A stretch of 63,191 nucleotides of DNA, filler included, from Hausera hauseri (lineage: Eukaryota): the NCBI GenBank assembly GCA_046269625.1. It is 13 parts of 13 records of this genome, joined end to end, with 100 filler letters (N's around TTAATTAATTAA, not from the genome) between each part and the next. Parts side by side here need not be neighbours in the genome. Positions count along the whole stretch, not along the records: positions 24,106 to 28,573 come from JBJURY010565561.1; 12 more parts are not named here. One strand, written 5' to 3'. A model generated the notes under the pieces. The model was not told the DNA's origin, ran no database searches, and was given only the letters and a program-made list of their open reading frames with translations. The position numbers were made by a program, and so were the translations under genes. Within the stretch, counting starts at the first letter, position 1, and the number at the start of each line of letters is the position of its first letter. Positions 13,901 through 44,634 of this stretch are shown here, one piece after another.

Positions 13901-15173
13901 AAAAATCTTGGTGATCAATTGAGTCAACTGCAATATAAAATGAAACAGGATAAAGTACGTTTTGATGAAGAGTTAGGCTATAAAATTGATGACATTGAAG
14001 ACTTGAACAGAACCATACAACGAATGCAAAAAGAGCTCGATAGTAAAGCGAATGAAATGAAAGAATGTAGAAATACTATTTCAGAACTTGGGGATCGTAA
14101 CAGTGAAATCGATAAATTGAAAGAAGAAAATAAAAATCTATTAGCTAAAATTCAAAAACTAGAAAATGAGAATAGAAAATATTCAGATGACGCTCGGCAG
14201 CTAAATGAAAACAGTAAAGTTCTTGTCCAGGAGTTGAATGAATTGAAAGACAAAATCAAACAGGCTGAAGAAAAGTATAATGTTGATCTTAAAGATAAAT
14301 TAAGGAATATAAACGATTTGCATGAACAAATACGTCAAACACAAAAGGAACTTGATGATAAAGTAGACCAAAGTAATGATTTCCAAATCACTCGATCGGA
14401 GCTGGGTGACTGTCAAATTGAGATCAGTAATCTTAGAGAGGAAAATAAAAGTCTTCTGGTTAAGAATCAGATGTTAGAAAAAGACATTAAAATTCTTACA
14501 GACGAGGTTCATCGGTTGCAGAAAAGCAGCAAAGCTATTGCACAGGAACTGGATGAATTACAGGACAAAATGAAAGAGGATGAAGCATATCATAGTGATG
14601 AATTAGAAAGTAAATTACGGGTTATAGACGAGCTAAATAAAAAAATACGTGAAGTACAAACGGGATTTGATGAAAAAGTCAACGAAAACATGAACTTTCA
14701 AAATACACTATCGGAACTGGCAGATTGTCAAAAAGAAATCTCCAGATTGGTGAATGAAAATCTGAAATTATCAGAGAAAATTCAAAAATTGGAAATTGAC
14801 AATGAGAACTATCATAATACGCTATTGGAGCTTACTGATCGTCAAAATGAAATCGAACACCTGTTGGTCGAGAATAGAAATTTACTAGATAAAATTCAAA
14901 AATTGGAAAGTGATAATATGAACTTTCAGAATACACTTTCTGATCTTCAAAATGAAATCGATAATCTGTTGGTTGAGAAAAGAAATTTACTAGGTCAAAT
15001 TCAAAAATTTGAAATCGATAATAGAAACTATCACAATACGCTATTGGAGCTTACCGATCGGCAAAATGAAATCGAAAATCTGTTGGACGAAAATCAAATT
15101 TTATCAGATAAAATTCAAAAATTAGAAATCGATAATAAGAACGCTCAAACAAAAGTTTCTGATCGTCAAAATG
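10988..15173 (+). CDS. Host long coiled-coil protein, partial (exon 10988-11164, intron 11165-12337, exon 12338 to contig end)
   Basis: Clean frame of more than 2.8 kb with heptad-rich E/K/N/L sequence. GAA|gtaagt donor and ttag|GTT acceptor join in phase 0. No TE motifs; runs off the contig. Confidence 0.75.
11250..11990 (-). mobile_element. Decayed hAT (ZMYM1/Tip100-like) transposase relic inside the host intron
   Basis: RYV..FLLFVPI.DFTGKG..KAI...L..LGLDL...GQ, and an upstream WL..LTYSQMDDG..KFC TTF-zinc-finger-like remnant. Confidence 0.6.
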
Positions 15174-15370
15174 NNNNNNNNNNNNNNNNNNNNNNNNNNN
15201 NNNNNNNNNNNNNNNNNTTAATTAATTAANNNNNNNNNNNNNNNNNNNNNNNNNNNNNNNNNNNNNNNNNNNNCGACGAGAAGGTCTGATAACCGAATAT
15301 AACATTTGATGTTATTATTTTACGATAACGAAATTGTGACAACAAATTCAGTCAACAACTCAAATCTGAC

Positions 15371-15633
15371 CTTTAATCCCTTGGCCAACGACAAGGCTCC
15401 ATTTTGTCGTAAATGATTCCAGCTCAAATTCAAATCTTCAATACTGTCATTTTCCTCTGAAGATGAATATGAAAATTATCAATTACCACTCCATCATTTA
15501 CCCAACATCATTTTTATGGCTCCTCCACATTCCGTACTGAATTTGTTATCCGCAACATCGAGTTTGATGATTGTTCGGTTTTTAGAAAGGGCCTGGAATA
15601 AAGCTGTTCCATCATTGTCATCCAAACTGTTGC
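15371..15633 (-). CDS. Host leucine-rich-repeat (RNI-like, LRRC74-like) gene, two exons (15502-15633 and 15371-15456)
   Basis: Spliced reading NSLDDNDGTALFQALSKNRTIIKLDVADNKFSTECGGAIKMMLEENDSIEDLNLSWNHLRQNGALSLAKGLK. The 45-bp GT-AG intron (15457-15501) keeps the frame, and both exons have GT/AG borders. Confidence 0.7.
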
Positions 15634-16199
15634 CTGTTCAAATGTTCAAATGATGGATATTATTACATGTCATATTGGTCATATCGTGATGGGGCAAATT
15701 GGACATCCCATACAGCGGTATGAGATCCCATAAATTATTATGATGTTTATTAGGTTTGGGAAGGGGGGGGGTGAAATGTATGTGTTACATGCGATTAAAT
15801 ATATGTCATGTCAAATGGAATAAGAAATAATTGGCATTTTTATTACAAATACGTCAATAGAAATATCGATCAATAAAACATGGCGGAATGAGGTAAGTAA
15901 TGCACATGATAGATGTATTAATGGTACTAGTTGAATATTGATGGAATGGATTCGTTACGTTAGCAACGGATAATCAATACAACAAATCACCTCTAAGAAT
16001 CAATATTTTCAACGTTCTTGTTGACGCAATCCAAGATGCCAAAATACGACAACCGAATTTTCCAATTCCAGTACATGACAGATTCTATACATGATAGATT
16101 CGCTATTTAAATTTTTATACAATGTTACAAGTTCGTTTATATGACTCGATTTCAACATCGATGTTAATACTGATAACGAATGTTTTGACAACATATTTC

Positions 16200-19100
16200 C
16201 CTGCATATTGATTACTGGACATAATCCAATATTCTATATGCCCCACATGTGAGGTATTGTGCAGGACAGGGTACGAGGAATTTTACAATGTACATAAACA
16301 TCACTTGATTTCCTTCGTCAAGTCGAAAAATGAAATATTCTATAACAATATGCCAACAATGTCTATAGTGCCAAAAAAACCAAAGGTGCAGTTCATATAT
16401 GTATTGCATATGTACAATTCATAGCCCCGAGAATTGTCACAATACCATGAGGAGCTATTATGGCAACAAATACAATAGGATCCTCTATTATATTTGCCCA
16501 GGATGTAAGACTGTATGTGATGGCGAATACATACCGTTCTATGAAGATCATAATCAACATCTGACTGACTTTGCATCAAAGTTCAAGAAGATCATATTTA
16601 ATGAACATAGACCAGTTGCACAGTTCGCAGTACAGTCCGCAGTACAGCCCGCAGGAATGAAACGCCCATCAGGTCCATCAGATGCCTCAGGCTCAATAGG
16701 CGTAGAGGCTCGGCCAAAAAGCCAAAGACAGCGACCAGTAGATGCTGCTGCATTAAAGGAAAAAGTCTGCAAATATGTCATTGATGCAGCTGGGCAAAGA
16801 ACCATCAAGGAGTTCTTGGAATATGCAAAGGAAGAAATAGAGGGACCCTCCAGGACAATATGACTGAGCTCAAGGCCATTAAGGTTAATATGAAATTTGA
16901 GGCCACATACGCCAATGTCGATGCTGATGAATCAAATATGCCCTTTAAGACCAAAGATAGGCCCATATTGGAAAGCACAAATATATCTGAATGGCTGCAG
17001 GAAGAGCATACGAAGCTGATCCGTGAAGCCGATGACAGCCAGCATAAGAAGAGCGGATGGGCTCTGGAAACCATCAAGAGACTGCTTATATATGTACATA
17101 GATACTCCCCCATGCAAGGCAGTTCATATATGCAGCTGCCGGAATGGATTCGGATAAAAATGCTTGAATCAATGTCCATAATAATAAAAACATGTGATTC
17201 ATGTATGCCATTTTATGTAAACTCGTACGGGATCAAAAACATGCAGCAGATCGAATTTGGCTATACATTGATCTCCAACACAACTACGACTTTCAGTGTA
17301 TCACATTCCCTTCATCCGTTGACGAAATCAAGGAGTTGAGCCGCATCAACAACATATCCATCAATATCTTTGGATTGGATGAGAAGGACATATACTACCC
17401 TTTGCAAATATGTGATGCTGAATTGGAAGATCATAGGGATCTGCTGCTACTAGACGACGATGATAAGAAACATTATGTTTGGATAAAGAATTTTAGGCGT
17501 CTTGTCAAATCCCAAATAACAAATCATGAACACGGAATCGAAATATGCAAAAGATGCTTATCGCATTTTAGCGGTAAGTTAGCTGTAGAGAAGCTGAATG
17601 AGCACAAGATGTACTGTAACAACAATTATTGTGTAAGGTCAGAATTTCCCAAAGAGGACTATATCGAATATAAGGAATTCGAGAAGAAGATCAAGGTCCC
17701 AATTGTCATCTATTGCGACTTTGAGGCCATTCTCAGACCAGTACATACATGCAGTCCCAATCCTCAACATAGCAGTACAACGGAATACCAATATCACGAA
17801 CTATCATCGTACTGCATGTGTGCCAACGGATTGGACAATAAACCATATCTATTCAGGGGTCCATGCGCAGCAGCACATTTTATGAAGATACTTGAATACA
17901 TGGCTCATAAGCTTGAAAAATGCTACAACATAAGTACGACATGAGCATATCTTAGATGCAAGGACAAGAATGGCGCAAGACAGCATCATGCTACTTTTGC
18001 AACAAATTCTTCACCAAGGAAAATGGTAAAGTAAAGGATCACTGCCATTTTACAGGTATATATTGGGGTGCAACATGTAACAACTGCAATCTTCGCTGCA
18101 AAACATGCAAATATGTACCTGTAGTATTCCATAATCAAAGCGGTTATGACAGCCACTTCATAGTCCAAGAATTAGGCAACATTGATGGCAATATAGAAGT
18201 GATCCACAACAATGAGGAGAAATATATCACTTTCACTAAGCATGTTGGTAAAATCTGACTTCGCTTCACTGATAGTTTCTGATTCATATCATCTTCACTG
18301 TACAGTTTAGTGAAGAACCTGCCTGCCGAAGAACTCAATGAAACAAAGCGATTCTTTCCAGATGCCTTTAACCTAGTTAAAAGGAAAGGAGTGTTTCCCT
18401 ATAACTATATAACATCATGGCAAACACTGGATGAGTCCACATTACCGCCCAACGATGATTTTTACGGACAGTTGTAGGATTGTGATATCAGTGATGAGGA
18501 CTACCAACATGTTCAGAACGTCTGGCAGGCATTTCAATGCAAAACATTGCGGGAATATAGTGATATATATCTCCAAACCGTTGTGCTGCTGCTGACAGAT
18601 GTATTTGAAAGTTTTAGCGATGTCACAATGAAAAGCCATACTTTGGATCCGGTTTATTTCTTCACGGCTCCAGGGATGAGTTTGGCATCAAGGCTGCTCT
18701 ATACTGGTATCAGGCTGCAAATTATTAAGGACTACGATATGATCCTTATGATCGAAAGAGGCATTAGAGTGGGAATATGCAAGCCATTCACCGGTATAGT
18801 GAGGCCAACAACAAGTATATGGCTGAACACGACTTAACAAAGGAATTATCATATATTTCTTACCTGGATGCCAAAAACTTGTATGTATGTGCAATGAGCG
18901 CCCCATTGCTATATGATAATTTCAAGTATGTTGAGCATCCCGAAAACATCCCTATCATGGACCTGGACCATGCTGGAGATACTGGCTACATACTGGAGGT
19001 GAATATGAAATATCCGACTTCCATCCACACAAGGCACCAATAGCTGCCTTTCCTCCCTGAAATCAGACTATCGCCCAATGGAAAGCGGCGAAAGCTGCTC

Positions 19101-19460
19101 TGCCATTTGGGTAATAGGGACAAACACGTAGTCCACTACATCAATCTCAAGCAGGCAGTTAAACATGGACTCCACATTACAAAGATCCACAAAGCCGTCC
19201 AGTTTAGCCAGTCCATGTGGTTGCAGATCTAAATACCAAGTTGCGGACAAATGACAAAAACGATTTTGAAAAAAACCAGTTTAAGCTCTATAAGAACAGC
19301 GTTTTTGGCAAGACGATGGAAAATATCCGCAACTGGATCAACATCGAGCCAGTATGTGACTGGAAGCGGGCAAAGAAGCTTATAACTAAGCCTACCTTTC
19401 ACAGCAGCACCATATATGCGGAGAATTTGGTAGGAACCCATATGCTAAAAACATCACTAG
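16200..19460 (+). pseudogene. Polinton protein-primed DNA polymerase B (decayed), same family as 4632-8373
   Basis: SGWALE..GSSYMQLP, HYVWIKNF, VIYCDFEA, KDHCHFTG..CNNCNL, FHNQSGYDSHF, KGVFPY, YLDAKNLY, KLYKNSVFGKT; colinear with the minus-strand copy. Confidence 0.92.
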
Positions 19461-19560
19461 NNNNNNNNNNNNNNNNNNNNNNNNNNNNNNNNNNNNNNNN
19501 NNNNTTAATTAATTAANNNNNNNNNNNNNNNNNNNNNNNNNNNNNNNNNNNNNNNNNNNN

Positions 19561-20060
19561 GTGCCATTTTGATATCATTGATTTAAAATTTATAGCGGAA
19601 AGGCCTATGTGCTTTCGGTCCCACTTGCGAATTATTCGAAAACCAATCAATCGATTTAAATTCTAACTGCACAATCACATACAACATCAAGTGCACTACC
19701 GATTGCACCCGGTCTCGAGAGCTAACGACCGACTTTTGATTTTCGGGGAATTCAATATTGTTGATTTTTGCACACATGCACATGTGCTGCACACTTGCAC
19801 TTGCACCCATCGATGTGCACTCATGTGCACTATCGATTAACACAAAGTGCAAATCGATTCGATCAATACTGCACTGTGCAGCGATCGATATGTGAAAAGT
19901 GCAAAAGTGCCCTTAGCAACAGTGCCTATCGGCACCGTTACCAGGCACTCTATGGATCGATAGTGCACAGTGTGCACTATCGATCGGCACATGTGCAAAA
20001 TCAATTTATCGATTACCCCTCCCCCCGGGAGTGGGACCGAAAGCACATTTTCCTCCTACT
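19561..20060. mobile_element. Polinton terminal inverted repeat end (end at 20060)
   Basis: Ends CATTTTCCTCCTACT; dense GTGCAC/ATCGAT palindromes; homologous to 4410-4631. Confidence 0.7.
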
Positions 20061-20706
20061 GGAACAAGTTAGGTAATGCTCTTAAGATGACTCCGTCCCC
20101 AGTGAGCTTTGATCCCGATAGTTTTTTCATAAAATCAATAAATTGATCATTTTCAATGCAAATAAAAAACAACTAAGGAATTTTCCAGAAGAAGCCAAGG
20201 CGAATATTCAACTTAAAATTAAACGTACAAGCAGAACACGACTGGAGTAACCTCATGGAATTATATGAAGTTCGCGTCTGTGCTATATATTTTGCTGATG
20301 ATGCATAAATGCACTAATTGTCATGTTTATAATTACTTTACTAAATTATTGATTAAAAATATACCTTGAGTTAAACTTTGTTGATTTTTACGTTACATAT
20401 TATATTTATAATAATCATTTATAAGTAGTTTCATATGCAAAAAGCAAACCTTTAACACGTAAATGAATTAAGCAGACTAAGAAGTTCTGCAACCTCGTTG
20501 GCTATCATTGATTTATTAAACCAGCATGTTGCGTTATCAAGAATTAATAACATGAAACACAGTATATAGTTATACAATTAAAAAAACTGCAACGTAAATT
20601 ACTAAAATATCAAATATACTGTCAATTTGTTGACATTTCAAGCACACGGAAACAAAATGTAGATTATTATTAAAAAGTAAGCAAGAAACGTAGTGTTGAC
20701 ATAAGG

Positions 20707-21156
20707 CTAAACGTTTCTCAAACAATTAGATCCATGTATATTAGCTGGTATTGTCATCAGCTTAATTGCGAAATAGTTGACAAAACGTTGTGATGGAAAG
20801 TATGATTTAAGAGTTTTTTGTTTCTGTCCATCAACTTTGCCTTTCACATAAAACAATGTTTGTCTTGTATCAACAAAGAAACTTGAAACATCAATTACGC
20901 ACTTTGGACAAAACAATCGAAATATTTCTTCCCAGGCTAACTTGACTCGATTATTTATCCTATGGTGATTTATGCATTTCGTAGTTTCTGATAACCATTT
21001 CCAAGATACTACAGGTCTGAAAACATAATGCAATGGGTAGAACATATTGCCTACATTCATTATACACAGTTCCTTTAAAATATATAATTCATTGTCATAA
21101 AATGCTTCAAAATCGACAAAACACTGTTTTTGACTACTACAAAAAGAAAAAGCCAT
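20707..21156 (-). pseudogene. Polinton accessory ORF with a DEDD/RNase H-fold-like N-terminus
   Basis: CFVDFEAF....YILKELCI...HYVFRP...LFYVKG..QK..L. Lies directly downstream of the protease in a Polinton gene block. Confidence 0.55.
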
Positions 21157-21211
21157 ATCTAATAATTTATTGAGATACTTGTCTGTACTTGTTTTTCAAC
21201 CATGAAATACA

Positions 21212-21559
21212 TCAATGTTCATAGTAAAACGTTAATGGGTTCTTATACATTATACTGTTATACACAATTTGTTGACGCATTCGTTCTAGTTTTGTGACCA
21301 ATACTGATGGATAGCACATACCGAGCGGTTCAAAGACCCGAATAACATTGACCTGGACATTAATGACAATCCAATGCTCACCCTGTAAATTCGAAGTGAG
21401 TATTGACAACGTCAGTTGCTGGTTGCATGTAATCCGATAAGCGTTCCAACCCATAGACACCTGAATCATTTCGGTCCACGTAAATGAGTTTGTTGTAGTT
21501 CAATCTGAAAAGTACTAAATAAAATGCAATGTAAAAGTTATTTCTCAAACTTACTTCAT
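21212..21559 (-). pseudogene. Polinton adenain-like cysteine protease (decayed)
   Basis: SGVYG...VVNTH, a frameshift, then SNLQGEHWIVI..VFEPLG. A 50-bp intron (21505-21554) places an ATG in frame with the GVY motif. Confidence 0.8.
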
Positions 21560-21587
21560 TGTTGCACGCACAACCCCATTATATTTT

Positions 21588-22756
21588 TTATACAATAATT
21601 TGGCCAATCTTAGTAATTTCCACCGTTGAATCAAATATTCCATACAAGTACATGGTAATAGATACAGCCAGCTCTTTCTGCAAACGGACGTTCAATTTTA
21701 GATTACCGGTTTTTGGTAACTGAGTCTGCTCAATATCGAAATCTGCAGACAAGAAAAATGGAAATAATAATTTCAGATAATTGATTGAGCATTTGTTTCA
21801 ATGTCGTTGACTTTTCAAAATCCATTCTGTGTGATTCTTGGTTATCATCGTTTCGAGATAGTAATTATCTGAATATTTGCATGAGTAAATTTTGAGCTGT
21901 CTTCAATAGTCACACTAATTAATCGAGACTTGAAATGTTACAAGCACAGATTACGGTAAACGCTCATCTGCAAACAAATTGTTTTTGTACTCACCCCCTG
22001 ATCCTTTTGGTAGACAGATATATACCATTTTGCTACGCTGAATCGGATACACGGTATTCGGTTTTTCCAAACCAATACGGTAGGCAATTAAATCAAAAGG
22101 TTTAACTCTAACTCGCCAAACAAGGAGTTTTGCTTCTTCGATGTAAATTTCTGGTGATTGTGCTCCTTTCGAATCTGTTTATACTTTGACATACTTAAAA
22201 ACCACATTTCCCGAACTTCGGATGAACCTAATTTAATTGATGTGCATGGAAACAAATATTTGGGCTGGTTAGAAAAATCCAAAATTAATGGACCACATAA
22301 AGTAAGTTTATTAGATTTATCTATCCGCGCTTTACGACCTTCATCTTTTCCATAGCCATGCATTGAAGAAATGTATTGAAGTATCCGTTCCAAAATTTAA
22401 AACGTTTTCAAGAATCGCTTTTGCATAAAGGAATAATTTGTATCTTCCACTTTTATATTGTTAAACATGGGTATTACTTCTTTAAACAATTAATACAGAA
22501 ATATTGCATAGGGTAATATCGTATGTTGCCACCGAATTTTTACCGTCTGAACCAACAACTTTGAGCGTAAAAACAAGAGTTTCATTCAAATAACTGTAAT
22601 CATTATCAGAGCCGATTATTTTAAATTCAATTTGATGACTTCAATATCCCGCAATTGCATTTTTCGGATAAATGGTTCCAAATTTAGATAACGCAACAAT
22701 TACTTGAGGTGCAGCCTGATAAAAAATGTCAAGTTCACTTTGCCAGCGTAAATCAT
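21588..22756 (-). pseudogene. Polinton major capsid protein (double jelly-roll), decayed
   Basis: N-terminal SELDIF..P...IYP...IEFKIIGSD.DY..LNET, middle GPLILDFSNQPKYL and YPIQR, C-terminal KTGNLKLNVRL..YGIFDSTVEI. Confidence 0.8.
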
Positions 22757-22989
22757 AATAGTTTATCAAATATTGTTTTTATGCGTTTGCATAGTTTTTT
22801 TGGTATTATTGTGCTTTTGCTTTCTCATACCGTCACCTTAATTAAACTGATTTGCCGTTTACCGAAGTGCATTTGATGTATGCTCTCGGATTTCAGGCAA
22901 ACCATCAAGAGCACTATCTTTAATGGCATTGCTTTACTGTCCCAAAATAAAATCTGGACCGGCTCTCACAGCTGCTGACCCTGCCGCTA

Positions 22990-23660
22990 GATTATTAACT
23001 TCAATTCTGTTTACTGAAGTCGATGACACAGGCAAGTACATGGGATAATGAAATTGTGTGAAAACAACATCACCGTACTTGTATTTCGTTTCTAACAATA
23101 TTTTTCGTAGGAGTGCAGGACGTGCCTCACCAACAAATATCGGTTCCATCACGCTGCACTAAATAAATATTTGACTGTATACGTGGTTTTGTATGCCCGT
23201 TTTGTATACGTGGTCTGTATATTCCTTTGATATTATGTAAACATGTTATTAAATTCAGATTCCTGTAATCCCAGAATTGATTCAATTCCGAACCAAATAA
23301 TATTTAAACCGCATTGCCTTGCAACGTGATTTCGATTAGCCCGCTTCATCGTTGGGTTTAATATTGGTGAAAGTATCTCGAAAATCCATGAGACTTAAAG
23401 ATAATTAATTAAGAAATCGTACCAAAACATCAAAAGCCATGGATGTTTGAATTCTTCCAGTTCTGTTTGGCTTTACACTTTTCACTTTACATATAATTTT
23501 GTACCATTTTTAAGTGTTGTTTGTGGACTATATTTGAATGAAATTGCATTCAGTGCAACTTTCCAATTACGATGCAGTATTATTGGATTTGAGTATTCAG
23601 CGATCAATTTTCTTGAAGAATTACTAGGGTAAATACTGTTACAAGCGTTACTTGCAACTG
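22990..23660 (-). pseudogene. Polinton minor capsid (penton) protein, decayed
   Basis: N-terminal NAC.SIYPSNS...NPII..NWKVALN; C-terminal EPIFVGE..ALLRKI...F.YPMYLPV...NRIEVN. Confidence 0.72.
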
Positions 23661-24005
23661 TTTTTATTTATCAACTGAGACGAATAAATCCAAGTGAGTA
23701 TATTATAGCCAACCCATTTAACTAATAACTGTTTGTCTTTTCCTTTTCCTTTTGTTTTCAATACAGATTGTATTCGAAATATGTCCGGTGATTCTGATAA
23801 TACCTGGAGTTCTTGCCCATAAAATTTACCTTTGATTTCTTCTGCACTTGAGTCTTTTATTCGGTACATGACAGGCATTTGTTTTGTGTCGATTTCGGAA
23901 ATTTGAAATACTTCATCACTCCAATTTGTGTTAAAGTTTTTGATAAATGGTGAAGTACTAATTCGTGATATTCGTACTAAATCGCCAACTCTGTATTTGG
24001 GCTTT
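23648..24005 (-). pseudogene. Polinton retrovirus-like integrase, C-terminal SH3/chromo-like part
   Basis: PKYRVGDLVRISR...NWSDEVFQI...YRIKD...IKGKFYGQELQ...LVKWVGY...TWI. Confidence 0.85.
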
Positions 24006-24105: not shown

Positions 24106-26490
24106 TGCCATTTTATTACGCATTATTTCGTAATTTAACTTACACTCGTTCATTATTATCTCACGATATAAACTTCTAATTTTTTTCCTTACGTAATTAA
24201 TCAAAAAGTCGATCTTGTTATCGAAATATTGCATCAACTTTACACCTTTCTTGTCGACTTTTGTTTTTTCGCCGGGTATTCTTTTTTTCGATAAGAAAAT
24301 ACCCTTATAATTAGTTTTTGAAGCTTCTTTATTACATTTAGTTGCTACTCCCGTGATCTTAAATCGCATCATGTCTTCCAGATTTTCTGAGTATACAAAT
24401 GTAGCTACTTCTGTCATCTTGACTTTCTTCGTTCCTTCTTTATACGTCGCTGCCTCTTTTTCCGTTGTTTTTCCAACCGTTTTACTAAATTTTCCTTTTT
24501 TCAACAACGTTAATTGACATTTATTTGCTATGGTTTCCCAAGTCATTTCAGACTCTCCAGTATCACATTCACCATTATCATATTCACATTCACTCATTGC
24601 CGTCATTACTTCTGTCTGTGAATCGAAGAGTACTTCATATTCTTTCAACTGAATCTGATAATCTTTGATGGCTACCGTTCTAGGGGCGATGGTACCTCCT
24701 ACGTCATAATCCACTCCTTTACACGTGCCTTCCATTGTTTTATCTATTCTTCCGGCCCTAAATATTCTAGTATATTTTATTCGATTTCGTATTGCCGGTA
24801 TATGTGCATTTTGTATCGTAATAATACCAATCTTAAAAGCATCCTGACACTCTGCTCGTGATATAATGATTGGTTTGAAAGGTGTAGTAGGCTCAATTAT
24901 AGCTGAATTTCCGGAATAGTAAGCACAATTAAACAGAAAGAAGGACCTCTTTACATAACATTCTCTGACCTTTGCTTTTATAAATTCCGACTCTTGATAT
25001 ACGAAGTACGTAAAACCACATGTCGTTGTTAGTTGTTCCGGATCAGCTTCTGGGCACTTCTCCAAATCTACCAAAGAGTACTTTTGACCTTCGCTAGGTT
25101 TAGAGCAATCATAAGCTATTATACCTACCGCTTTTGGCATAAGTAATGACGTTATTAATAGAATTTGAATAATCTCCATCATTGACATGCCTGTCGTACC
25201 TGCTCTAGTGGTACCTGGTTGTGTCGGAGCTGGCGTCTCTATTAACCTTTCTCGTTCTCCAGGCCTTATTACATTAGTCATCAGACTGCTTAGCCATCCA
25301 CCTCTACATTGAGCCCAATTGCCTAACGTATCTTTCAAAATTTTTACGGCTGTTCGTATATTCCGTTCTATTTCTTCTAAGTTTTGCGTTTGATGATTTA
25401 TTACTATTATTTTATATAACAGATACGATATCGCCGTTCGAGCTTTTTCGCGTGTAATTCCGGTTGCGAACATTTTTTCTAAAATATCCATCTCATGCAG
25501 TTCATTTATTCGTTCTTCCTCTAAGTTTTCATAGAATTGCCTACTTATTCGTAGCATATTATTATGTAACGTTGTGAATAGTTCATCTGGTATTATTGTC
25601 TGCATGTCAAATGAGGCGAATGACGTATGTAGTCTAGCCAATAATGTTCTTAATAATGGGTCTATGTCCACCGATTCAGGAGTACCATCTGTTCCTGCTA
25701 ATAATAATCGTCTTACTATTTCTTCATTTCTATCTTTTCTATTACGAATGTCACTTATTTTAGTTCCTTTCGGCCTACCTCTTCTCTTGGCTTCTGTTTG
25801 AACTGTGACATCTTGGGTATCACCCATAGGATTCTCTACTTCCTGTGGTTCTAGTTCCCTTAGGATATTTTCTACTGTTGCCTGAGCTCTTGCCTCTGGA
25901 TGTATTTCGGTTAACGTTATCGGATTGTAGTTCTCACTTCTACATCCAATTCTTAATAATTTATCGTAGTTATATAACGTCCTCCCATAATAACTTAATC
26001 CATAAGGACTTCCTTGATAGAAAGGTTCCAACTCCTCAATCTTTTCTCTTAAAGATTGTATATCGTCTACTTCATTCATCCTAATAACCCTCATGTCTTG
26101 GTTTCCTTCTCTTACTGTTATCCGTATAACTTCATTTCTTCCTTTCTCATCCTCGGCAGCTTTGGCTAATACCGTCCTGGCTATTTCTCTAACAGGACTG
26201 GTATCTTGAGCTAATAGCACCAATTGGCGTAGGATTTCATTCATCCTCTCTGGCGTTACTTTGTTAGTCAGTATCTTCAATATCGTAGTAGTCGTTTTAT
26301 CCACATCGATTATGTTATCGGGATCGACCGTCAACACTGCCTGGATGATATCTTCTTCTTCGTCTAAGTCTACACCTGGGTTCCTTATTACCTGGCCCAA
26401 TATAGCATCGTCAAATATTGGCGTGGCTTGGGTTTCTTCTGGATTGAATGAGGGTAAGGGTGTACTAAGGTTACTCTTCTTTCTTCCTCT
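24106..26490 (-). CDS. Retroelement polyprotein segment: ubiquitin-like domain, AT-hook, internal signal peptide, chuvirus-like glycoprotein (5' part; runs off contig)
   Basis: Open for more than 760 codons. UBL about 25906-26127, KRRGRPKG about 25765-25788, hydrophobic IIQILLITSLLMPKAVG, then IIAYDC..YSLVDLEKC, ECYVKRS..NC, GTCKG, ECKLNYEIMRNKMA. Confidence 0.8.
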
Positions 26491-27710
26491 TTTCTTTTTT
26501 TACTACCTCTTCCCTCTCTGTTAATGTTTCTCTTGATTCAACCTCTACATCAACTATTTTCCTATTGCCTCTCTTTCTTCCTTTTCGTGATCCCTGTTTC
26601 TCTGGTTGATTTTCTATCATATAGATACTACTTTCTTTTAGTCTTTGCTGCTGTCTTTTATACTCCTTTAATTCTATTTCTAATTGCTTTTTCGTGCGTT
26701 GGTACAACGTGTCGTTGATATAATTGACACTTTCTTTCTTTTTATTTTTTTTAGTCTCTTTTGCGCTAACGTTGTCATCCGTTTCGTATTCCATATCGGA
26801 GGATTCATTTGGCGTGGCCGATGTATAATATTTTTTCTGTTGTTTTTTCTTATTACTTGATCTCGAGGAATCTCCTTTGCGTGATCTACATGACTTGGCT
26901 ATATGTCCACATTTATTACAATTAAAACATTTCAGTCTTCCTTCGGAATCTATGTTAGGCAGTGATCTTCCATCCTTCTTAGATTTCTTCTTATAATTTG
27001 CCTTTTCCCCATCGTTTCGTAAATTAAACCTGACTTTCTTTTCCACATTTGACTCAGCTTCTGTGGCTGACGTTTGTGAGGAGCTTCTGTTTCTTTCATA
27101 ACGTTGATATCGTTGAGTACTATTGTTTCTTCTTTTATCATATCCATTGTTATTACTTTTAGACTTCTTCCACCCATACAGTTTTGCATCTCGTTTGTCT
27201 TTTCGCGCCTTTCTTATTGCTTCTTGGAACGTAGGCGGGTCTGTTTGTGAAATTATTGTCCTTAATCTTTCTTCTAGTCCGTATTGAAATTGGGCCAACA
27301 ATGCGTTATTCCGCATCGTAACATCCGGATATACTCTTGATGCGAGTTTTTCCAATGCACAGACAAAGTCCTAGACTGTTTCGTCTTTATATTGCCTTCT
27401 TCTTATAAATTCTTCGATTCTCCCCTTTCCAGGGGGATCTAGTAAAAACTTTTGAGGCAGTTTTTCTTTAATTCCTTTCCATTCCTTCTTGTCTTCGTCC
27501 AGCATCTGATATTAAATCATAAGAGCCGTCCCTTTTAGATAAAGTGGTAATCTTTTTAATCCTTTCTTGTCGTCCTCACCGAAGCTTTAGGAATATACTT
27601 CGTATTCCATCATGAAATCATGTATGTCTTCTTTGAACGAGAACTTTTTCATCGGTAGAGTGAAATCAGTCTTCGACTGAATCACCTGCTCTACGTTATG
27701 GTTTGCCATA
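26471..27710 (-). pseudogene. gag: Gypsy-type gag with CCHC zinc knuckle
   Basis: LPLYLKG.A, RRQ.KDETV.DF..ALEKLA...YP, QFQYGL, PPTFQEAI..A, CFNCNKCGHIAKSC; stops in the 5' part. Confidence 0.85.
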
Positions 27711-28673
27711 AGTTCGTCAAGGCTTAATGCGAAATGAGAAAAGAGTGAATATAATGCCCACAATTACCTTAGAAATTAATTTGAAATTCTCGACAATGAT
27801 TACTGATATTATTTACGGAATCAGGTTGGAATAAATAGAAAAGCAAAAATCAGAAAGGCATAGGAGTGAAGTAGTGAGAATCCCAAGCAATCAGTATCAG
27901 ACTGAAATTCACACAAGTATTCGAAAAAGTTATGAGAAGTATCGATCAGATATAGCTGAGGACGAAATTGGACTCATTTCTAATCTGAGGAAATTGCTTT
28001 GAGGAGAGCCGAGTCAACCAAATCAATTCGAAAATCACTGTACATAAGATGAAAGCAGCTACGAAAAAATAAGTGGATTTAATTGGATTTATCATGATTT
28101 TTGTTACTAATTCTGTTCAATCGTCACTAATTACATTGGTAGAGACTTCTACGTAAATGGTTAATTAGTGGGGAGAACAACTAACGTTGACTTGATTAGA
28201 CGTTGTGAGTGGGTATGCAGAGAGGTGTTGTACTGGCTTACCTACCTATTAGTCGGTAATGTGTATGGGGATACTCTTTGGATTATTTTATTACTTTCTA
28301 CTGTTTACTTTCTTATCTTTTATTTAAAAATTAAACTGGCGACCATCAGGTAGAGTTAGACTTGGTCGACCAAATACCAACTTAATTAGCTTTTACTTAA
28401 TTACTCACGTTAATTAGTAAAAAGACTTTAAAAATAAAAAAATAATGTAATGTAGTTCTAAAAGATACGAACAAACAGCATTAACAAACACAACATAAAA
28501 ATCAAATGATACACTTACACGTAGACATGGAGTGATGTATCATAAATTTGTAAATAGCCAATGTCTGTTTTCANNNNNNNNNNNNNNNNNNNNNNNNNNN
28601 NNNNNNNNNNNNNNNNNTTAATTAATTAANNNNNNNNNNNNNNNNNNNNNNNNNNNNNNNNNNNNNNNNNNNN

Positions 28674-28835: not shown

Positions 28836-28853
28836 TGGGGGCTCGTCCGGGAT
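28836..28853 (+). promoter_or_regulatory. Primer binding site, tRNA-Pro
   Basis: TGGGGGCTCGTCCGGGAT is the canonical 18-nt tRNA-Pro PBS. Confidence 0.93.
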
Positions 28854-29149
28854 CGAAAAATTAAGATCACCCGAGGAGAGGAGCTAGATCACCGTACCTC
28901 GTCCGGGAGCGAAAATATAGATCACCCGAGGAGAGGAGCAGTATTATTTAAATCACCGTCCTTCGTCCGGGATTGAAAATATAGATCACCCGAGGAGAGG
29001 AGCAAATATTATTTAAATCACCCGTCCTTCGTCCGGGATCGAAAATTTAGATCACCCGAGGAGAGGAGCCAGTATTAATTAAAATTGTTTAACTTATAAC
29101 ACCCGTCCTTCGTCCGGGATCGAAAATATAGATCACCCGAGGAGAGGAG
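28843..29149 (+). repeat. Five-copy array of a ~40-bp PBS-derived unit with AT-rich linkers
   Basis: Core TCGTCCGGGATCGAAAATATAGATCACCCGAGGAGAGGAG starting at 28843, 28899, 28963, 29029 and 29110. Confidence 0.95.
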
Positions 29150-29706
29150 TATAAAATCTGAGGAGTGAAAGTAAGTAAGTAAAAAAATCCAGTGGAGAAT
29201 CAACGCCAAAGCTCACATAGCGACACAAGAGAACCTTTGGTCAAATTTTTTTTTTTGGTAAAGGGAAAGAAGATAATATTAAGGGAATTAATTATAATTT
29301 TAGTGAGTAATTTATTTTAGTTAAGATGCATGTTTGCCTAATAGCTTCCGTTTCAGTGTAGCAAGGCAAAGGCACAGATACAGTGATCTCGCCAGTAATC
29401 TAAGGCCTCTTATTAAATTATTATAAATAATAAAAAGGTGGGTCTTGAAGGCAGAGGCCAAGGTAAGTTCGTCGAATCAAACGACGTACGCCAAGCAGAA
29501 ATAATTAGTTAAAAGATAAGTCAAATCCAAGATTTCACGGAAATTTAAGAGTATGTATTGAGAAATTGAAGAGCGCACACTTTAGCGCCAAAATTTGAAT
29601 TATCAAAACCGCGATCACCCATTGTAACACATACGCAACACGTAGCGCACGACAAAGCAGGCACCTACATTTCATTTATCGTATTCATTTGCATGATCAT
29701 TGAAGA

Positions 29707-32700
29707 ATGGCAACGGAATCGTCAGCCCTGATGGAACAAGCTGCCAGGGAACAGGATACGACCAACAACGGACTAGCGTCCTTACTAGAACAGTTTAACA
29801 AAGATTGTGCGATACAGCAATTACGTGGGTTGACACCGGCGTTTAAGGGAGACAAGGTTATGTTACCGACATGGTTGACCATGCTGGAACTCGTAGCCAG
29901 CCAGAGGAGCCTACCGGAGGCAATGTACGTTGAAGTGGCAATGCTTACTTCCGCCGGTAAAGCCCAAACTATGATACAACAGTGGATTATGTTCGAGAAA
30001 GATATCTCCTGGAAGGAAATGAAAGCACGGTTGATCCGGACGTATGGAGAACCGATAGACCAAGACATTGTCCTACGAAGATTACATGCGGTGGTACAGG
30101 AACCACAAGAATCGATACTGTCGTATTATGAAAGAGTCCGTCAGACGCTAGTGCATGCCTTTATAGATGTAGAGAAGCTGTCATCAGACGCCCAAAGAAG
30201 ATGGGTCGCATCGTTCATAGATGGATTGGCCGAAGAACGTATCAGGAGAAAGCTCACAAAGAAACCACCGGCTACATTGACGGGAGCCATGGAAGAGGCA
30301 GTGGACCTAGAAAATGAAAACATCAGATTTAAGGCAAGATACGCCTCAAAGTTGCGTTACGCAGACGAGCGGGAGTCTCTGGAGCCAGAGGAGGTGAATG
30401 TCATTAGAGAGAGGAAGCCACAGCTAGAGCCAACCCAGAACCGGTCCCCATATGAAAGAGTATCGAGGCCATCACTAACCCAGTCCATAAAACCTGTAGG
30501 ACAAAGTATAAATCCGTATAAACCCTTTCCAAAGACAAAGTGGTATGACCTTACGGGAAAATTGGTCATGAACGCCGACCACGTCTGTGAATTCTGCCAT
30601 AACGAAGGACATACAGCCACGAAATGCCGAGCAAGAGAGAAGTTTAGACAGTGTATTACGTGTGGTGTATGCCAGCAGAATGGACATCTGGCTCAAGATT
30701 GCACCATACTAAAGAGTGAACCGAAGCCGGGGTCGATGGTCCACACCCTGGAAGAGGTGCGAAGGAGCCCCATAGCGCAGCCAGAGCAAGAGGAATGGGA
30801 GGCCAAGCAGACGTCCAACCCTAAAGAACCACAAGTGTATACTATCACTGAGACGTTGACCGAAACCGACCCATGCTCAGTCCTAGTACAGATCGAAGAT
30901 AACCTCATACGAGCGCTATTGGATACGGGAGCGAATATCTCCGTTATAGACAGTAGGACAGTAGGGGAGTTGGATATCACCCACCGGATGAAGCCGTACG
31001 AGTCATCGCTCGCAACTGCCGGTAGTGAGAGAATGACAGTAGTGGGAGAAATCAAACTCACGTTCGGGCTAGCGGGAAACAAGTTCAAACATACGTTCCG
31101 AGTGACACCGAGGTTACAAAGAAGAATGATCCTTGGTAGCGACTTCTTAGACCGGAATAAGATTGAACTCAGCTTCCGAAGGAATGCGATCAAGGTTAAG
31201 GATCAGTGGCACGGGATCGACGATGACGTATATATTGCATCCTTGGTGAGGGTAAAGGAGAACACACGGATACCACCGCAATCCATCAATGTAATACAGG
31301 CCTATGTGAAACCGTCTACTTACCTTCGCACGGGAGAGGATATATTCCTCACGAATATAGCAGACCACGAAAACTCAACACCCAGCGAAATTTTCCAGGA
31401 TCCTTGGATTCACACGATAGATACCACGGTGAGGCTGGAGGCATCGCACGACGTGCCAATCACAATAGTCAACAACTCTCAGAAACATATATTCCTACGG
31501 AAGGGTCAAGCAATCGCCACTGCAGCCAAGATACGTCAGGAAGAGTGTGAAGCCATATGCAGCATCCAAGCTGAACAGTTAACGAGGACAACGGTTGTCA
31601 GGCATGACGAGCAATCCTCAAAACCAGAAACACAAGATAGGCTAGAAAAGTTACTGAGCCAAAGGCAAAAGCACGTCACCCTAGATCGAGAAGTGGTAAG
31701 ATTGGTCAGGGAGCATCCGGACACGTTTGCTGTGGACGATAGCGAGCTGGAAACGACCAACACTGTGTATATGGACATAGATACGGGTAACCAGGCACCC
31801 ATCGCCCAAAAACCTTACCCAGTACCAATACACAAAAGAGAGTTGGTGGAGAAGGCCATTAGCGAGATGCTAGAGAATGGTATTATCTCCCACACAATAT
31901 CCCCATGGGCGTTCCCAATTGTGCTGGTGCAGAAGAAAGATGGAAGCACAAGATTTTGTGCAGATTTCAGAAAATTAAACGCCGTGTCAAAATCGATTTC
32001 TTTCCCTCTGCTACACATAAACACCATCATCGATAGCCTGGCTAATAGCAATTACTTTTCGACGCTGGATGCAAGGGCAGGATTTTGGGTCATACCCATG
32101 ACAGAAAGAGCAAAAGAGCGGGCAACGATCACTACCCACATGGGCACGTTCAATTTTAACGTTATGCCTTTTGGCCTGAAAGGGGCACCGGCGACGTTTA
32201 TGGCCTTAATGAACCGAGTGCTGCAAGGTTTGTCGAACATCGCGATGGCCTATATTGACGATATTATAGTACACACAAACGGCACACTGGAAGACCATAT
32301 TAGGGATTTGAAAGTAGTCTTCAATAGACTAAAGCAACATCACGTCAGGTTGAAGTTGAGCAAATGTGCATTCTTCCAAAAGGAGACCAAGTATTTGGGA
32401 TTTATAGTAGGGCAGAAAGGCATACGACCAGATCCCGAGAAGGTAGAGGCGATACAAGGAATCCCAGAACCGACCTCGGTACGAGAAGTACGAAGCTTCA
32501 TAGGATCTTGTAGCTATTATCGGAGATTCCTGCCGGCGTTTTCGTCGATAGCAGAACCACTCATCAATCTCACGAGGAAAGGTACTCGATTCAGATGGTC
32601 CGAGGAATGTAGTGCAGCCTTCATGGAACTTAAGGAACAGTTCAATAAAATACCCATCCTGGGATACCCCGATATCACGAAACCCCTCATATTATATACC

Positions 32701-34779
32701 GATAGCTCAGACTTTGCAGTGGGGGCAGTGCTCGTACAATGCACTGAAGAAAACGCACCCATCCCGGGAATTCCTAACGAAATACCGATAGCCTTCCTAT
32801 CGCATTCGCTGAACAAGACGCAAAGAAAATGGTCTACGACGGATAAAGAGGCCTACGCCATCGTATTCGCGTTGCAGAAATTCCACGCATACCTATACGG
32901 AGCAAAATTTATCTTAAGAACGGACCATCAATGCCTGCAATATCTGTTGGCGTCAGAACAGAAGAGCCGAAAATTACAAAACTTTGCGCTGAATATACAA
33001 GCCTATGATATGACCATTGAATATATCCCAGGGAAACAGAATACGTGCGCCGATTTCTTGAGCAGAATCCATCATAGAGAACGTGAGGGAAGTGTCGCAG
33101 ATGAAGACGACATTGAAATTAACGACCATACGTATGAGGTTAACATAATAAACGCGAATAGACGAAAAGATTATAGTACCGTGGAGGTAACGGAAGAAGA
33201 AGGCAGCAGGAAACCGTTGACTACTCTGACACAAAACGTCGACATGAAACGAGAACAAGAAAACGACCCGCACTGTCAACAACTCCTGATGCGCTTAGAA
33301 ACGAATCCGAAGAAGAACGAAAGGTATATCAAATTTGAAGACGGGCTGTTGTACCATATCCACTACAACAACATGCTCCGGTTGGTGGTACCCAAAACGC
33401 TACAGCCGCATATAATACATCAGTACCATGATTTACAAGGGCACTGCGGTATCTCAAGAACTCTGATGACGATAGAGGCCAAATATTTTTGGGAACATCT
33501 AGCGAAGGATATCTATAAGTATGTCTCCACCTGCACACACTGCCAACTGAATCGGAGAGACTCGACCAAAACTCCAATACTGGAAACCGAACCGCCGAAA
33601 TTCACCTTCCAGAAAATTTCGCTAGACCTAACCGGACCGCATCCCAAAACACTATTAGGGAATCAGTACATACTGCACGTCGTAGATGAATACTCCGCGT
33701 GGCAGGAAGCTTACCCGCTACCCAACAAACTAAGCGATAATGTGGTAAATACCTTGGTGCAAAAGTATTTCACGGAATTCAGCGTCCCACAGGAGATCCT
33801 TACGGATAACGGGGGAGAATTCGTGAATAGTAGGTTCGAGGAGATGTGCAAAAGATACAATATCGTGCATCGAAGGACCAGTATCTACCACCCACAAGCC
33901 AACGGGAGGAATGAGGCGTCACACAAAACGCTATATGAGATTATGAAGACATATGTGAATGATACCCGAGACAATTGGGATACGTTCTTGCCGTTTTGTT
34001 TGTCCGCCATTAGGACCACATACCAAACTTCGACCGGGCTTAGCCCATATAAAATAGTATTCGGGCACGAACCGACGTTACCTTTGGATAATATTCTGCT
34101 CAAACAGGCAAAGCTATATTACGGTACAGAAACACACGAACTACTCTTCCATAACTTCGATAAAATCCACAGTCAAGTAATTAAAAACGTCAAACAGATG
34201 AAAGCCAGAAACTTGCAATATCACAATAAGACCGCCGAGTTTAAACAGTTGAACCCCGGAACACCAGTTCTATACAAAGTTCAGAAAAAGCAATCCAAGT
34301 TTGATAACAAATGGGTGAAAGGCTTCAATATTGTGGAAAAGCTAGGAGAGGCCACTTATCTAATAGAACACCAAATCTCAGGCCGAAAAATTATAGTGCA
34401 CGAATCAGCCCTGAAGCAAGAGCAACTCGCAAGTACGGAAACCGAAAGGGTGGATGCACAAGAACAACCAGACTTTACCAGCTACGTGCAAGATTTTACG
34501 AACACAGCACAGTTTGAACAACACGAGGAGGTTATAACCAACAAGAATACCGATCCGCAAGAGATTAGAGAAACAGAGAGAGAATCAGAACTCGATGTAA
34601 TACCGTATATTTTGGGAACTCAATGCACGACATCGCAACCAGAACAGAGAACAGTGGAACCAGGAATGCAAGGAATCAAACCAGCCGAAATACAGCCAAC
34701 ACAATCCAGCGGTAGCTCCGAAGCAGACACACCAGCACTTAACACACGTTCCAGAAAAAAGGTTACCTTCTGCCTATAA
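29707..34779 (+). CDS. pol: Intact Gypsy/Ty3 Gag-Pol polyprotein (1690 aa)
   Basis: Two knuckles (CEFCHNEGHTATKC, CGVCQQNGHLAQDC), protease LLDTGA, RT SPWAFPIVLV..DFRKLN..MPFGL..YIDD, RNase H TDSSD..EAYAI..TDH, integrase HHCC + DLTGP/TDNGGEF/NGRNE; no interruptions. Confidence 0.97.
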   Translation: MATESSALMEQAAREQDTTNNGLASLLEQFNKDCAIQQLRGLTPAFKGDKVMLPTWLTMLELVASQRSLPEAMYVEVAMLTSAGKAQTMIQQWIMFEKDISWKEMKARLIRTYGEPIDQDIVLRRLHAVVQEPQESILSYYERVRQTLVHAFIDVEKLSSDAQRRWVASFIDGLAEERIRRKLTKKPPATLTGAMEEAVDLENENIRFKARYASKLRYADERESLEPEEVNVIRERKPQLEPTQNRSPYERVSRPSLTQSIKPVGQSINPYKPFPKTKWYDLTGKLVMNADHVCEFCHNEGHTATKCRAREKFRQCITCGVCQQNGHLAQDCTILKSEPKPGSMVHTLEEVRRSPIAQPEQEEWEAKQTSNPKEPQVYTITETLTETDPCSVLVQIEDNLIRALLDTGANISVIDSRTVGELDITHRMKPYESSLATAGSERMTVVGEIKLTFGLAGNKFKHTFRVTPRLQRRMILGSDFLDRNKIELSFRRNAIKVKDQWHGIDDDVYIASLVRVKENTRIPPQSINVIQAYVKPSTYLRTGEDIFLTNIADHENSTPSEIFQDPWIHTIDTTVRLEASHDVPITIVNNSQKHIFLRKGQAIATAAKIRQEECEAICSIQAEQLTRTTVVRHDEQSSKPETQDRLEKLLSQRQKHVTLDREVVRLVREHPDTFAVDDSELETTNTVYMDIDTGNQAPIAQKPYPVPIHKRELVEKAISEMLENGIISHTISPWAFPIVLVQKKDGSTRFCADFRKLNAVSKSISFPLLHINTIIDSLANSNYFSTLDARAGFWVIPMTERAKERATITTHMGTFNFNVMPFGLKGAPATFMALMNRVLQGLSNIAMAYIDDIIVHTNGTLEDHIRDLKVVFNRLKQHHVRLKLSKCAFFQKETKYLGFIVGQKGIRPDPEKVEAIQGIPEPTSVREVRSFIGSCSYYRRFLPAFSSIAEPLINLTRKGTRFRWSEECSAAFMELKEQFNKIPILGYPDITKPLILYTDSSDFAVGAVLVQCTEENAPIPGIPNEIPIAFLSHSLNKTQRKWSTTDKEAYAIVFALQKFHAYLYGAKFILRTDHQCLQYLLASEQKSRKLQNFALNIQAYDMTIEYIPGKQNTCADFLSRIHHREREGSVADEDDIEINDHTYEVNIINANRRKDYSTVEVTEEEGSRKPLTTLTQNVDMKREQENDPHCQQLLMRLETNPKKNERYIKFEDGLLYHIHYNNMLRLVVPKTLQPHIIHQYHDLQGHCGISRTLMTIEAKYFWEHLAKDIYKYVSTCTHCQLNRRDSTKTPILETEPPKFTFQKISLDLTGPHPKTLLGNQYILHVVDEYSAWQEAYPLPNKLSDNVVNTLVQKYFTEFSVPQEILTDNGGEFVNSRFEEMCKRYNIVHRRTSIYHPQANGRNEASHKTLYEIMKTYVNDTRDNWDTFLPFCLSAIRTTYQTSTGLSPYKIVFGHEPTLPLDNILLKQAKLYYGTETHELLFHNFDKIHSQVIKNVKQMKARNLQYHNKTAEFKQLNPGTPVLYKVQKKQSKFDNKWVKGFNIVEKLGEATYLIEHQISGRKIIVHESALKQEQLASTETERVDAQEQPDFTSYVQDFTNTAQFEQHEEVITNKNTDPQEIRETERESELDVIPYILGTQCTTSQPEQRTVEPGMQGIKPAEIQPTQSSGSSEADTPALNTRSRKKVTFCL

Positions 34780-35769
34780 CAAATTTCGAACAATTTTCAT
34801 CGTCATACAACATATCCGATCCAGAATTCGTATCAAAGAGAATAAAACTTTACGAACAATTGTATCAGTACCTAAAAATAGAAATTGGTGAGAATGAACT
34901 GTGTTTATATCGAGATANNNNNNNNNNNNNNNNNNNNNNNNNNNNNNNNNNNNNNNNNNNNTTAATTAATTAANNNNNNNNNNNNNNNNNNNNNNNNNNN
35001 NNNNNNNNNNNNNNNNNCCACATTGTCTTAATTGAGTATTTGTTTATCGTTTAGTATGGTGTCCCAATGTAATTAGTCAAACAATGTATTGAAACAGTTT
35101 CATTAGAATTGCGAGACGCATTGAAGCAGCCGGATTAAATGTTTTCTTAAACCATAGGAAATGTAAAAATTGATTAAATATATGGCGTATGAATAACATA
35201 CACAGAAATCACTAATTATTTTTCTCATTTTAATTTGTTTCTATGTTTCAGTTAGGTGTAGTTCTATTTTGCGTATTTTGAGAATATTATTCAAGATCAA
35301 CTAATTGAAGAATTTGTCAAGTTATTTCTAAATACGAGTTAGAGAACTGTGATCATAACATTTAAGTTTGAAGGTCATAGTTTCGTACATGTAACAATGA
35401 ACTGGAAGTACATTTCCACGTTGGTTACTGATGGTTCTTGGTGGTCTGTAGTTCATGTAATAAGATTGTAATATGTCAAATTTTATTTTTGGAGTTGGCT
35501 TTTCAACATACTATATAAACCTTAACCATTTTTATGGATTTTGAATAAAGAAAATTTTACTTGAACTTCCATTTGAAGAAAGCGTGAAAGTTTTATTTAT
35601 AACACACATACTATTTTATTTGTTTATACGTTCATTTATTTTCTTTTGGGTTATTTTAAACTATAATATGCATAAAATGAATTTTAGGAGACCAGTCGTC
35701 GTAACTTCTTAAACTGCCAGCGTATTAAAATCATTCTTTTGTAGTTGAAATAAGGGACTCAATTTAATG

Positions 35770-37070: not shown

Positions 37071-37840
37071 TATATTACTATTAACATCATGCGTGGCCAT
37101 TGTTTTCAGGGTGTCCCTCCCCGGGGAGCCTTGCCCACCGTTTATTCATTTGGTCAATTGACAAACAAAGAGTTTAGCAAACATACAACATGCGCGGCTT
37201 CAATCAACAAACAGAATAATACCAATAGTAATTATAATCTTAAAATAGTTTTCGTCATCACAGCCTTCGTTTGATACGATATTAAGGAGGTCGTAATATT
37301 GTTCATGAATATCACTACACGTATTAATCAAAACTTCTAATTCCAGAGATCCACATCCATCAATATTCTCTATCCACAACTCATCCAAAAGAATTTGACA
37401 TGTTAAAAGAAGTTTACTATCAAAATGTTTACTTTCTTTCATAAAACTACAAATCATTTTCCAAGCTTCATTACGACTTGAAATTATCGAATGCATAGAA
37501 TTCGTTCTTTGTTCGAGATAAACTGACACACACGATTTTCAACATCAAGAAGCCTTGTTTTACCAGATTCATTTGACCGAACCAAAGATAGAAGAATAAT
37601 TTCGTTTTCCTCTTCGTGAAAACTATTTACTACCCAAATACGAATATCTTTGAAAATTTTATTAACTGTATTTTTTTAAAGATAAACAATTGATCGGAAT
37701 ATAAAATTAAAATTGTTACCTCACTGCTGTCAATTCCGTTTCCAACAAGTACTCACAAAATATTTTGATCATTTTAGTTTCATATATACGACTCGAACTG
37801 TCGTTTTTGGAACTCTCCAATTTAATATGATTGAATAGGC

Positions 37841-44517: not shown

Positions 44518-44634
44518 NNNNNNNNNNNNNNNNNNNNNNNNNNNNNNNNNNNNNNNNNNNNTTAATTAATTAANNNNNNNNNNNNNNNNNNNNNNNNNNN
44601 NNNNNNNNNNNNNNNNNCGGAACTTTCGGATATT

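Follow-up and report, generated by a model that had tools for sequence, protein, structure and literature searches.

A retroelement of the gag-env-pol Ty3/gypsy type carries, between Gag and its envelope, a short cassette whose parts run in the order helical domain, ubiquitin-like domain (UBL), AT-hook, predicted Bcl-2-like domain, hydrophobic segment and gB-type envelope (env). The order and spacing are alike in all four elements that we compared, though their UBLs are only 13-31% identical, and in two of the four, P0003 and L001, the cassette is fused to Gag. Our main reading, to which we give a probability of roughly 0.55, is that this is a Burro-like accessory cassette of a gag-env-pol Ty3/gypsy element, in which a membrane-hung domain of Bcl-2 fold dampens host cell death or stress signalling.

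The window, meaning the whole stretch of 63,191 nucleotides that was analysed, consists of 13 separate contigs of 4-6 kb each with N spacers between them, and the two families that bear the cassette therefore sit on different contigs: family 1 on 24106-28573, where the element lies on the minus strand, and family 2 on 39393-44517, on the plus strand. Nearly all 13 contigs are transposon fragments of an animal, with a GC content of ~36%. Decayed pieces of a Polinton-like polymerase, of mariner and hAT-like transposases and of a copia-type pol, all named by eye from translations, occupy 4410-8979, 15274-24005, 35018-39292 and 44618-49127. An uninterrupted gag-pol ORF of 1691 aa at 28842-34779 looks like an env-less Ty3/gypsy element, and four copies of a 62-nt repeat stand ahead of it (28892-29164). 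An open coiled-coil frame of 945 aa at 12338-15173 ends in tandem repeats of 219 nt and resembles a host gene or transcript.

The four elements compared were families 1 and 2 and two outside relatives, P0003 and P0004, the contig of the latter being L001. These relatives were the only two matches at E<=0.001 in a profile search of 1.84 billion representative proteins; P0003 is 41% identical to the family 1 ORF2 over 757 columns, and P0004 was matched by the family 1 profile at E 5.7e-9. Word-indexed protein searches returned nothing for the region before env, while the env and the four-sequence profile each led to P0003 only. Related loci were found neither in viral contigs nor in the first metagenome scan, and the second scan gave two, L001 and L002, of which L002 was dropped as a relative (45% over 51 aa, outside the cassette). 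In sequencing run X1, 17,070 and 9,232 contig pieces, which are not copy numbers, align to the two families, both cassettes included. Both families are present as many diverged copies within the same sequencing runs, and their copies in the window are broken relics of the cassette-bearing design.

In family 1 the cassette and env share ORF2 (24106-26499, minus strand), which is 798 aa long and open to the contig end. Gag (26474-27763, minus strand) is left in three same-frame pieces split by stops; it matches the P0003 Gag by BLASTP at E 2e-13 and has a CCHC zinc knuckle at ~26885-26932 (minus strand). ORF2 and Gag stand in different frames in this copy and overlap at 26471-26499. In P0003, Gag, UBL, AT-hook, Bcl-2-like domain and env form a single ORF, and in L001 Gag and the cassette share one ORF with env in the same frame beyond one stop. 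Since both relatives have Gag and cassette in one ORF, the frame change in the family 1 copy is most likely decay. The stop in L001 is a lone in-frame TGA at 3058-3060 of that contig, past the Bcl-2-like domain and ahead of the env signal segment, and may be either decay or a site of read-through.

The place of env relative to pol was established in family 2 only, because the pol of family 1 lies outside the window and both P0003 and L001 end inside env. In family 1 env directly follows gag, and pol would lie past the contig end. Overlapping copies of family 2, pieced together, place env between gag and a pol in the order protease (PR), reverse transcriptase (RT), RNase H (RH) and integrase (IN). 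The family 2 contig has a Gag zinc knuckle at 39436-39486 (plus strand; zf-CCHC, E 3.8e-7) and, at 43234-44516 (plus strand), a hydrophobic segment with a gB-type env, a stretch disrupted by stops and shifts of frame. Another copy at 50291-54182 (minus strand), 84% identical in DNA to 43259-44511, holds env, the env C-terminus, protease and the start of RT, with env upstream of pol. In the third copy, at 54283-58243 (plus strand) of contig 54283-58656, a single frame with interrupting stops runs through the env C-terminus (55671-56297), protease (56391-56726) and RT (56889-57986). Three further contigs overlap the family 2 contig or each other at 76-88% DNA identity, and in them protease, RT, RNase H and integrase come after env. 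No LTRs were seen on these contigs of 4-6 kb, none of which spans both ends of an element.

Several other features of family 2 were seen. Between the Gag knuckle and the cassette, 39976-42128 holds additional coding sequence of ~2.1 kb, which is broken, mostly helical and without a significant Pfam match. Between PR and RT, where Burro has a dUTPase-like domain, there is an insert of ~100 aa in which Pfam gave no dUTPase match. In one copy, pol breaks off inside RT at ~50300, and a further ~1 kb of coding sequence that is not pol comes after it (49299-50315, minus strand). Part of this stretch (49299-49745) weakly matches RNase_T/DEDD exonucleases at E 0.007; it is possibly a 3′ accessory gene brought next to RT by an internal deletion. 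A broken ORF at 58759-59486 (minus strand), after a family 2 integrase, begins like a signal peptide, has no match in Pfam and is a candidate second surface protein.

A sequence-only reading of the window had noted a UBL paired with an AT-hook between Gag and envelope in both families. We confirmed the UBL of family 1 (25903-26127, minus strand, in ORF 26499-24106) by profiles and fold, and that of family 2 (42292-42519, plus strand, in ORF 41926-43551) by profile. Single sequences gave little: Pfam reported no ubiquitin match for the family 1 UBL alone, E 0.099 for that of family 2, and E 0.031 in P0003 and 3.8e-5 in L001, both under the cut-off, the best single-sequence score being 23.8 bits against a cut-off of 25.4. 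BLASTP between the family 1 and family 2 segments was not significant (best E 0.084), phmmer with each UBL alone found nothing significant in the PDB, and a single-sequence AlphaFold model of 25720-26448 was uninformative (pLDDT 41, no strands). The ESM Atlas, consulted as a lead only, listed for the family 1 UBL three unnamed matches and then Rad60-SLD and ubiquitin clusters at 0.88-0.90.

At the profile level the similarity to known UBLs is significant. A UBL profile of family 1, P0003 and P0004, searched against 1113 frames of the window, recovered the left-out family 2 at E 8.9e-5, a score reached by 0/1000 shuffles, and a profile of helical domain plus UBL, again lacking family 2, recovered it at E 2.7e-10. 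The two segments thus align by profile, as the earlier reading had anticipated. The UBL of P0004 alone was marginal against the family 1 pair (12/1000 shuffles) and with the helical domain included was reached by 0/1000; hhalign of that pair against family 2 alone gave a weak match of probability 13% and E 0.002 over 314 collinear columns. Against the PDB, the two-sequence profile gave the RAD23A UBL in 4/5 rows, the best 60 of the 399 matches of the four-sequence profile were all ubiquitin or UBL-bearing, and so were 26/26 matches of the UBL-only profile at E<=0.01. The best natural single domains matched the four-sequence profile at E 5e-6 to 1e-5, including ubiquilin and UHRF1 UBLs at ~1e-5. 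AlphaFold with the four-row alignment built the expected beta-grasp for the family 1 segment, as strand-strand-helix-strand-strand-strand with pLDDT 61-69, and this model fits the C-domain of ISG15 with TM 0.82 and rmsd 2.1 A; family 2 is assigned to the fold by homology.

No Gly-Gly follows the UBL in any of the four elements, which bears out the view that it is an integral, non-cleavable part of a conserved accessory module between Gag and env. A pestivirus-type processing signal needs Gly-Gly, and that role for the UBL was rejected on its absence.

Directly N-terminal of the UBL lies a helical domain that the sequence-only reading overlooked. In family 1 it is a four-helix domain at 26152-26358 (minus strand), and in family 2 it lies at 42127-42270 (plus strand), where a profile lacking family 2 found it at E 0.0078 (1/1000 shuffles). 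The domain stands ahead of the UBL in all four elements. Searches against PDB sequences gave no match below E 0.4, and a death-fold identity, which we had considered, is unsupported for that reason.

The AT-hooks are where the earlier reading had placed them: KRRGRPKG in family 1 (25765-25788, minus strand, in a linker predicted to be disordered) and the AT-hook-like KRPVGRPRK in family 2 (42697-42723, plus strand). The search pattern, picked after the motifs had been seen, occurs twice in 83 long frames, at exactly these two places (shuffle mean 0.08, P=0.005). In 4/4 elements the hook sits between the UBL and the next domain, 197-228 aa upstream of the ectodomain start. Six of its seven residues are kept in P0003, where the linkers are only 28-35% identical, and the RGRP core is flanked by basic residues in three of the four elements, that of family 2 reading VGRP. 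The Pfam AT_hook model scores only 7.1 bits in P0003. A second AT-hook-like motif, near the family 2 variant, lies at residues 303-311 of P0003 between the zinc knuckle and the cassette.

Past the AT-hook, and within the 170-200 aa that precede the signal segment, family 1 has a predicted Bcl-2-like helical domain (25276-25728, minus strand) that had also been overlooked. This stretch of ~150 aa is the best-kept domain before env, at 51% identity to P0003 (66/130), against 31% (23/74) for the UBL. The Pfam Bcl-2 model matched family 1 at E 0.004, P0003 at 0.055 and L001 at 0.019, with 14-18 bits and all below the cut-off of 31.4. A family 1 profile recovered the domain in P0004 (26.8 bits, 0/1000 shuffles). 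Against the PDB, 57 of the best 60 rows of the two-sequence profile were Bcl-2-family chains at E ~0.5, in an alignment spanning BH3 to BH2 of Bax, and a Bcl-2 profile that included the whole of P0003, and was diluted by its Gag columns, gave Bcl-2 in 27 of 30 rows at E 0.8-2.4. Foldseek with the family 1 model returned 44 PDB rows, none at E<=0.001, of which 22 were Bcl-2-family and 22 ubiquitin-like, three of the latter being presumably so. The Bcl-2 rows had probability 1.00, E 3e-3 to 8e-3, TM 0.51-0.61 and rmsd 5-7 A over a part of the model with pLDDT 39-63, a low-confidence fold match, and viral rows included herpesvirus BALF1 and an iridovirus BCL2-like protein. We consider a Bcl-2 fold of the 25276-25728 region in family 1 to be probable.

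The motifs of the family are unevenly kept. A BH2-like motif (aromatic-x4-GGW), reading RGGW at 25294-25305 (minus strand) in family 1, is invariant in family 1, P0003 and L001 (3/3) and absent from family 2. At the degenerate BH1 (25441-25473, minus strand) the NWGR of Bax/Bcl-2 is replaced by TREK, SRNK and EDTK, so that the BH1 Gly and Trp are missing, and at the BH3 position (25534-25560, minus strand) the Asp reads R, E and D. A working BH3-binding groove is therefore doubtful, judged from these residues. Family 2 has a helical region in the Bcl-2 slot (42751-43131, plus strand) which, when aligned to family 1 with gaps, is identical at 17/57 positions; it scored -1.7 bits against the Bcl-2-like profile, with 895/1000 shuffles higher, and Pfam gave no Bcl-2 match in family 2.

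The cassette of family 1 ends in a hydrophobic segment (25117-25173, minus strand), ~40 aa past the BH2-like motif and directly upstream of the ectodomain. It is the only strongly hydrophobic segment of ORF2 (Kyte-Doolittle peak 2.06, the next being 1.03) and would be an internal env signal sequence, possibly also a tail anchor. The last 340 of the 798 residues of ORF2 form a gB-type, Monjiviricetes-like fusion ectodomain (24106-25116, minus strand; PF24664, E 1.9e-30) cut by the contig end. L001 matches the same model at E 7e-43. A fragment of a third gB-type env family, 29% identical to family 2, was seen at 358-1044 (PF24664, E 1.5e-19).

The closest published parallel is Burro / GYPSM1, giant gypsy-like elements of dugesiid planarians, in which gag and pol are described as enclosing, in frame, a Ubi2/SUMO-like domain followed by BCL-2 and that in turn by a mononegavirus-like env (PMC6431247). 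The sequence-only reading missed this precedent, by which a UBL and BCL-2 between gag and env are already published. A role in meddling with apoptosis and ubiquitination was proposed there for Burro and left untested (PMC6431247). As in that description, the elements here have a Gag with a CCHC knuckle, a UBL, a predicted Bcl-2-like domain and env in frame, and very many copies (PMC6431247); the in-frame run after Gag was found in P0003 and L001, and in family 1 with the frame change after Gag. Burro ORF1 is 4,873-5,140 aa long, with Smc, MATH, BIR and ankyrin motifs, and the polyprotein of ~5,000 aa is called hard to study in the same source (PMC6431247). In contrast, family 1, P0003 and L001 have one knuckle and only ~250-370 aa from knuckle to UBL core, and Pfam found none of the four motifs in the elements here. 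The available text of the Burro review mentions no AT-hook (0 occurrences) and no helical domain before the UBL (PMC6431247). Our comparison with Burro is made by published description, and on that footing the element shares Burro's way of working and lacks its size and its full cargo; because of these two differences we rejected calling it Burro itself.

The elements here also resemble the GAG-ENV-POL HSV/gB-type errantiviruses of Nematoda, Bryozoa and Platyhelminthes, which are multi-copy and have a Ty3/gypsy pol and a gB-type env between gag and pol (PMC13524379). The words 'ubiquitin', 'AT-hook' and 'Burro' have 0 occurrences in the text of that article and 'bcl' appears there only inside other words, so cassette cargo is not described in it as far as its text goes (PMC13524379). 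Ty3/gypsy elements with a gB-type env in the usual gene order also exist (PMC13524379). The literature searched gave no description of the AT-hook, of the helical domain or of a cassette this short; the figures and sequences of PMC13524379 and the primary Burro paper may show an AT-hook. We would class the element, by description, as a new member among the GAG-ENV-POL gB-type Ty3/gypsy elements. Viral Bcl-2-fold proteins, such as herpesvirus BALF1 and the iridovirus BCL2-like protein, share with the predicted family 1 domain a divergent fold, degenerate BH motifs and a C-terminal membrane segment, but here the domain forms part of a retroelement polyprotein, with the envelope signal segment as its presumed anchor. 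Poxviral Bcl-2-fold modulators are further such proteins of large DNA viruses.

From this layout we infer a topology, a set of cleavages and a function for each part. A single polyprotein would be threaded through the ER membrane, with Gag and cassette cytosolic, followed by the signal segment, a lumenal ectodomain, the env membrane segment and a cytosolic pol. Signal peptidase would free the env ectodomain, the part upstream would stay in the membrane by the hydrophobic segment at its C-terminus, and the element's own protease would trim Gag from this anchored part. The Bcl-2-fold domain would then hang on the cytosolic face of the membrane, which is the topology of cellular Bcl-2 proteins, and would likely dampen host cell death or stress signalling. 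The UBL may serve as an integral docking or folding domain rather than a tag, probably without use of the ubiquitin Ile44 surface. The AT-hook would likely bind AT-rich nucleic acid, whether the element's RNA or cDNA or, after release, chromatin, or serve nuclear import; basic AT-hook-like patches can also act as nuclear-import signals.

The cassette could instead be a matrix-like module for particle assembly. The Bcl-2 fold would then no longer oppose cell death but serve as a scaffold close to the membrane that links Gag with the envelope membrane; the helical domain and the UBL would act as spacers, and the AT-hook would retain the AT-rich RNA of the element itself. Fusion to Gag and the terminal membrane segment suit such a scaffold, and because the BH1 Gly and Trp are missing and the Bcl-2 signal is undetectable in the many-copy family 2, where UBL and AT-hook stay, we keep it as an unlikely but serious contender. 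Against it stands the invariance of the BH2-like RGGW in 3/3 elements; no such cassette is reported, in the text of PMC13524379, for gB-type Ty3/gypsy elements of the usual gene order, and Burro is described as also carrying BIR and MATH domains, which points to a cell-death theme (PMC6431247).

The sequence-only reading had suggested, as an example, proteasome/ESCRT recruitment and binding of AT-rich nucleic acid or chromatin; as a mechanism, the UBL would mimic ubiquitin and recruit proteasome or ESCRT receptors for budding or turnover, and the AT-hook would tether the product to chromatin. In its favour, the UBLs matched best by sequence belong to shuttle factors (ubiquilins, RAD23, BAG6) and to UHRF1, and so speak the invariant equivalents of Gly47 and Leu50 and the R at the Lys48 position in 3/4 elements. 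Ile44 is the centre of the ubiquitin patch bound by proteasome and ESCRT receptors, yet the position, numbered from ubiquitin in the PDB alignment, reads S, H, V and Y (Ser in family 1, Tyr in family 2) and is aliphatic in one element of four, so mimicry toward these receptors is disfavoured. The UBL is moreover less conserved than the domain that follows it, most of its residues that are invariant in the three-way alignment occupy the core, and the AT-hook lies on a part predicted to be membrane-anchored, from which chromatin is reachable only after release; we therefore regard this mechanism as improbable. As for the domains having been picked up from host mRNA and carried along without function, or resembling known domains by chance, each single sequence does fall below the Pfam cut-offs and the window copies are decayed. 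Order, spacing and core residues are nevertheless kept in four elements down to 13% UBL identity, the linkers are gappier than the domains, the shuffle controls were passed and Burro offers a published parallel (PMC6431247), all of which leave this explanation very little room.

The layout itself, with a UBL and BCL-2 between gag and env, is not new. Large DNA viruses habitually carry Bcl-2-fold cargo; among retroelements it is reported, in the literature searched, only for the giant Burro elements. A cassette of 400 aa kept in several divergent multi-copy families shows a core part of Burro-type cargo and offers small natural domains that can be tested one by one. We speculate, as an unlikely but serious possibility, that family 1 preserves the minimal ancestral core of the Burro cargo (helical domain, UBL, AT-hook and Bcl-2 fold), in which one hydrophobic segment would be both env signal and Bcl-2 tail anchor. 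The processing of the envelope would then yield a working anti-death protein on the side, and would do so in lineages far outside dugesiid planarians. If the Bcl-2-like domain protects cells, these elements would manipulate the survival of their host cells.
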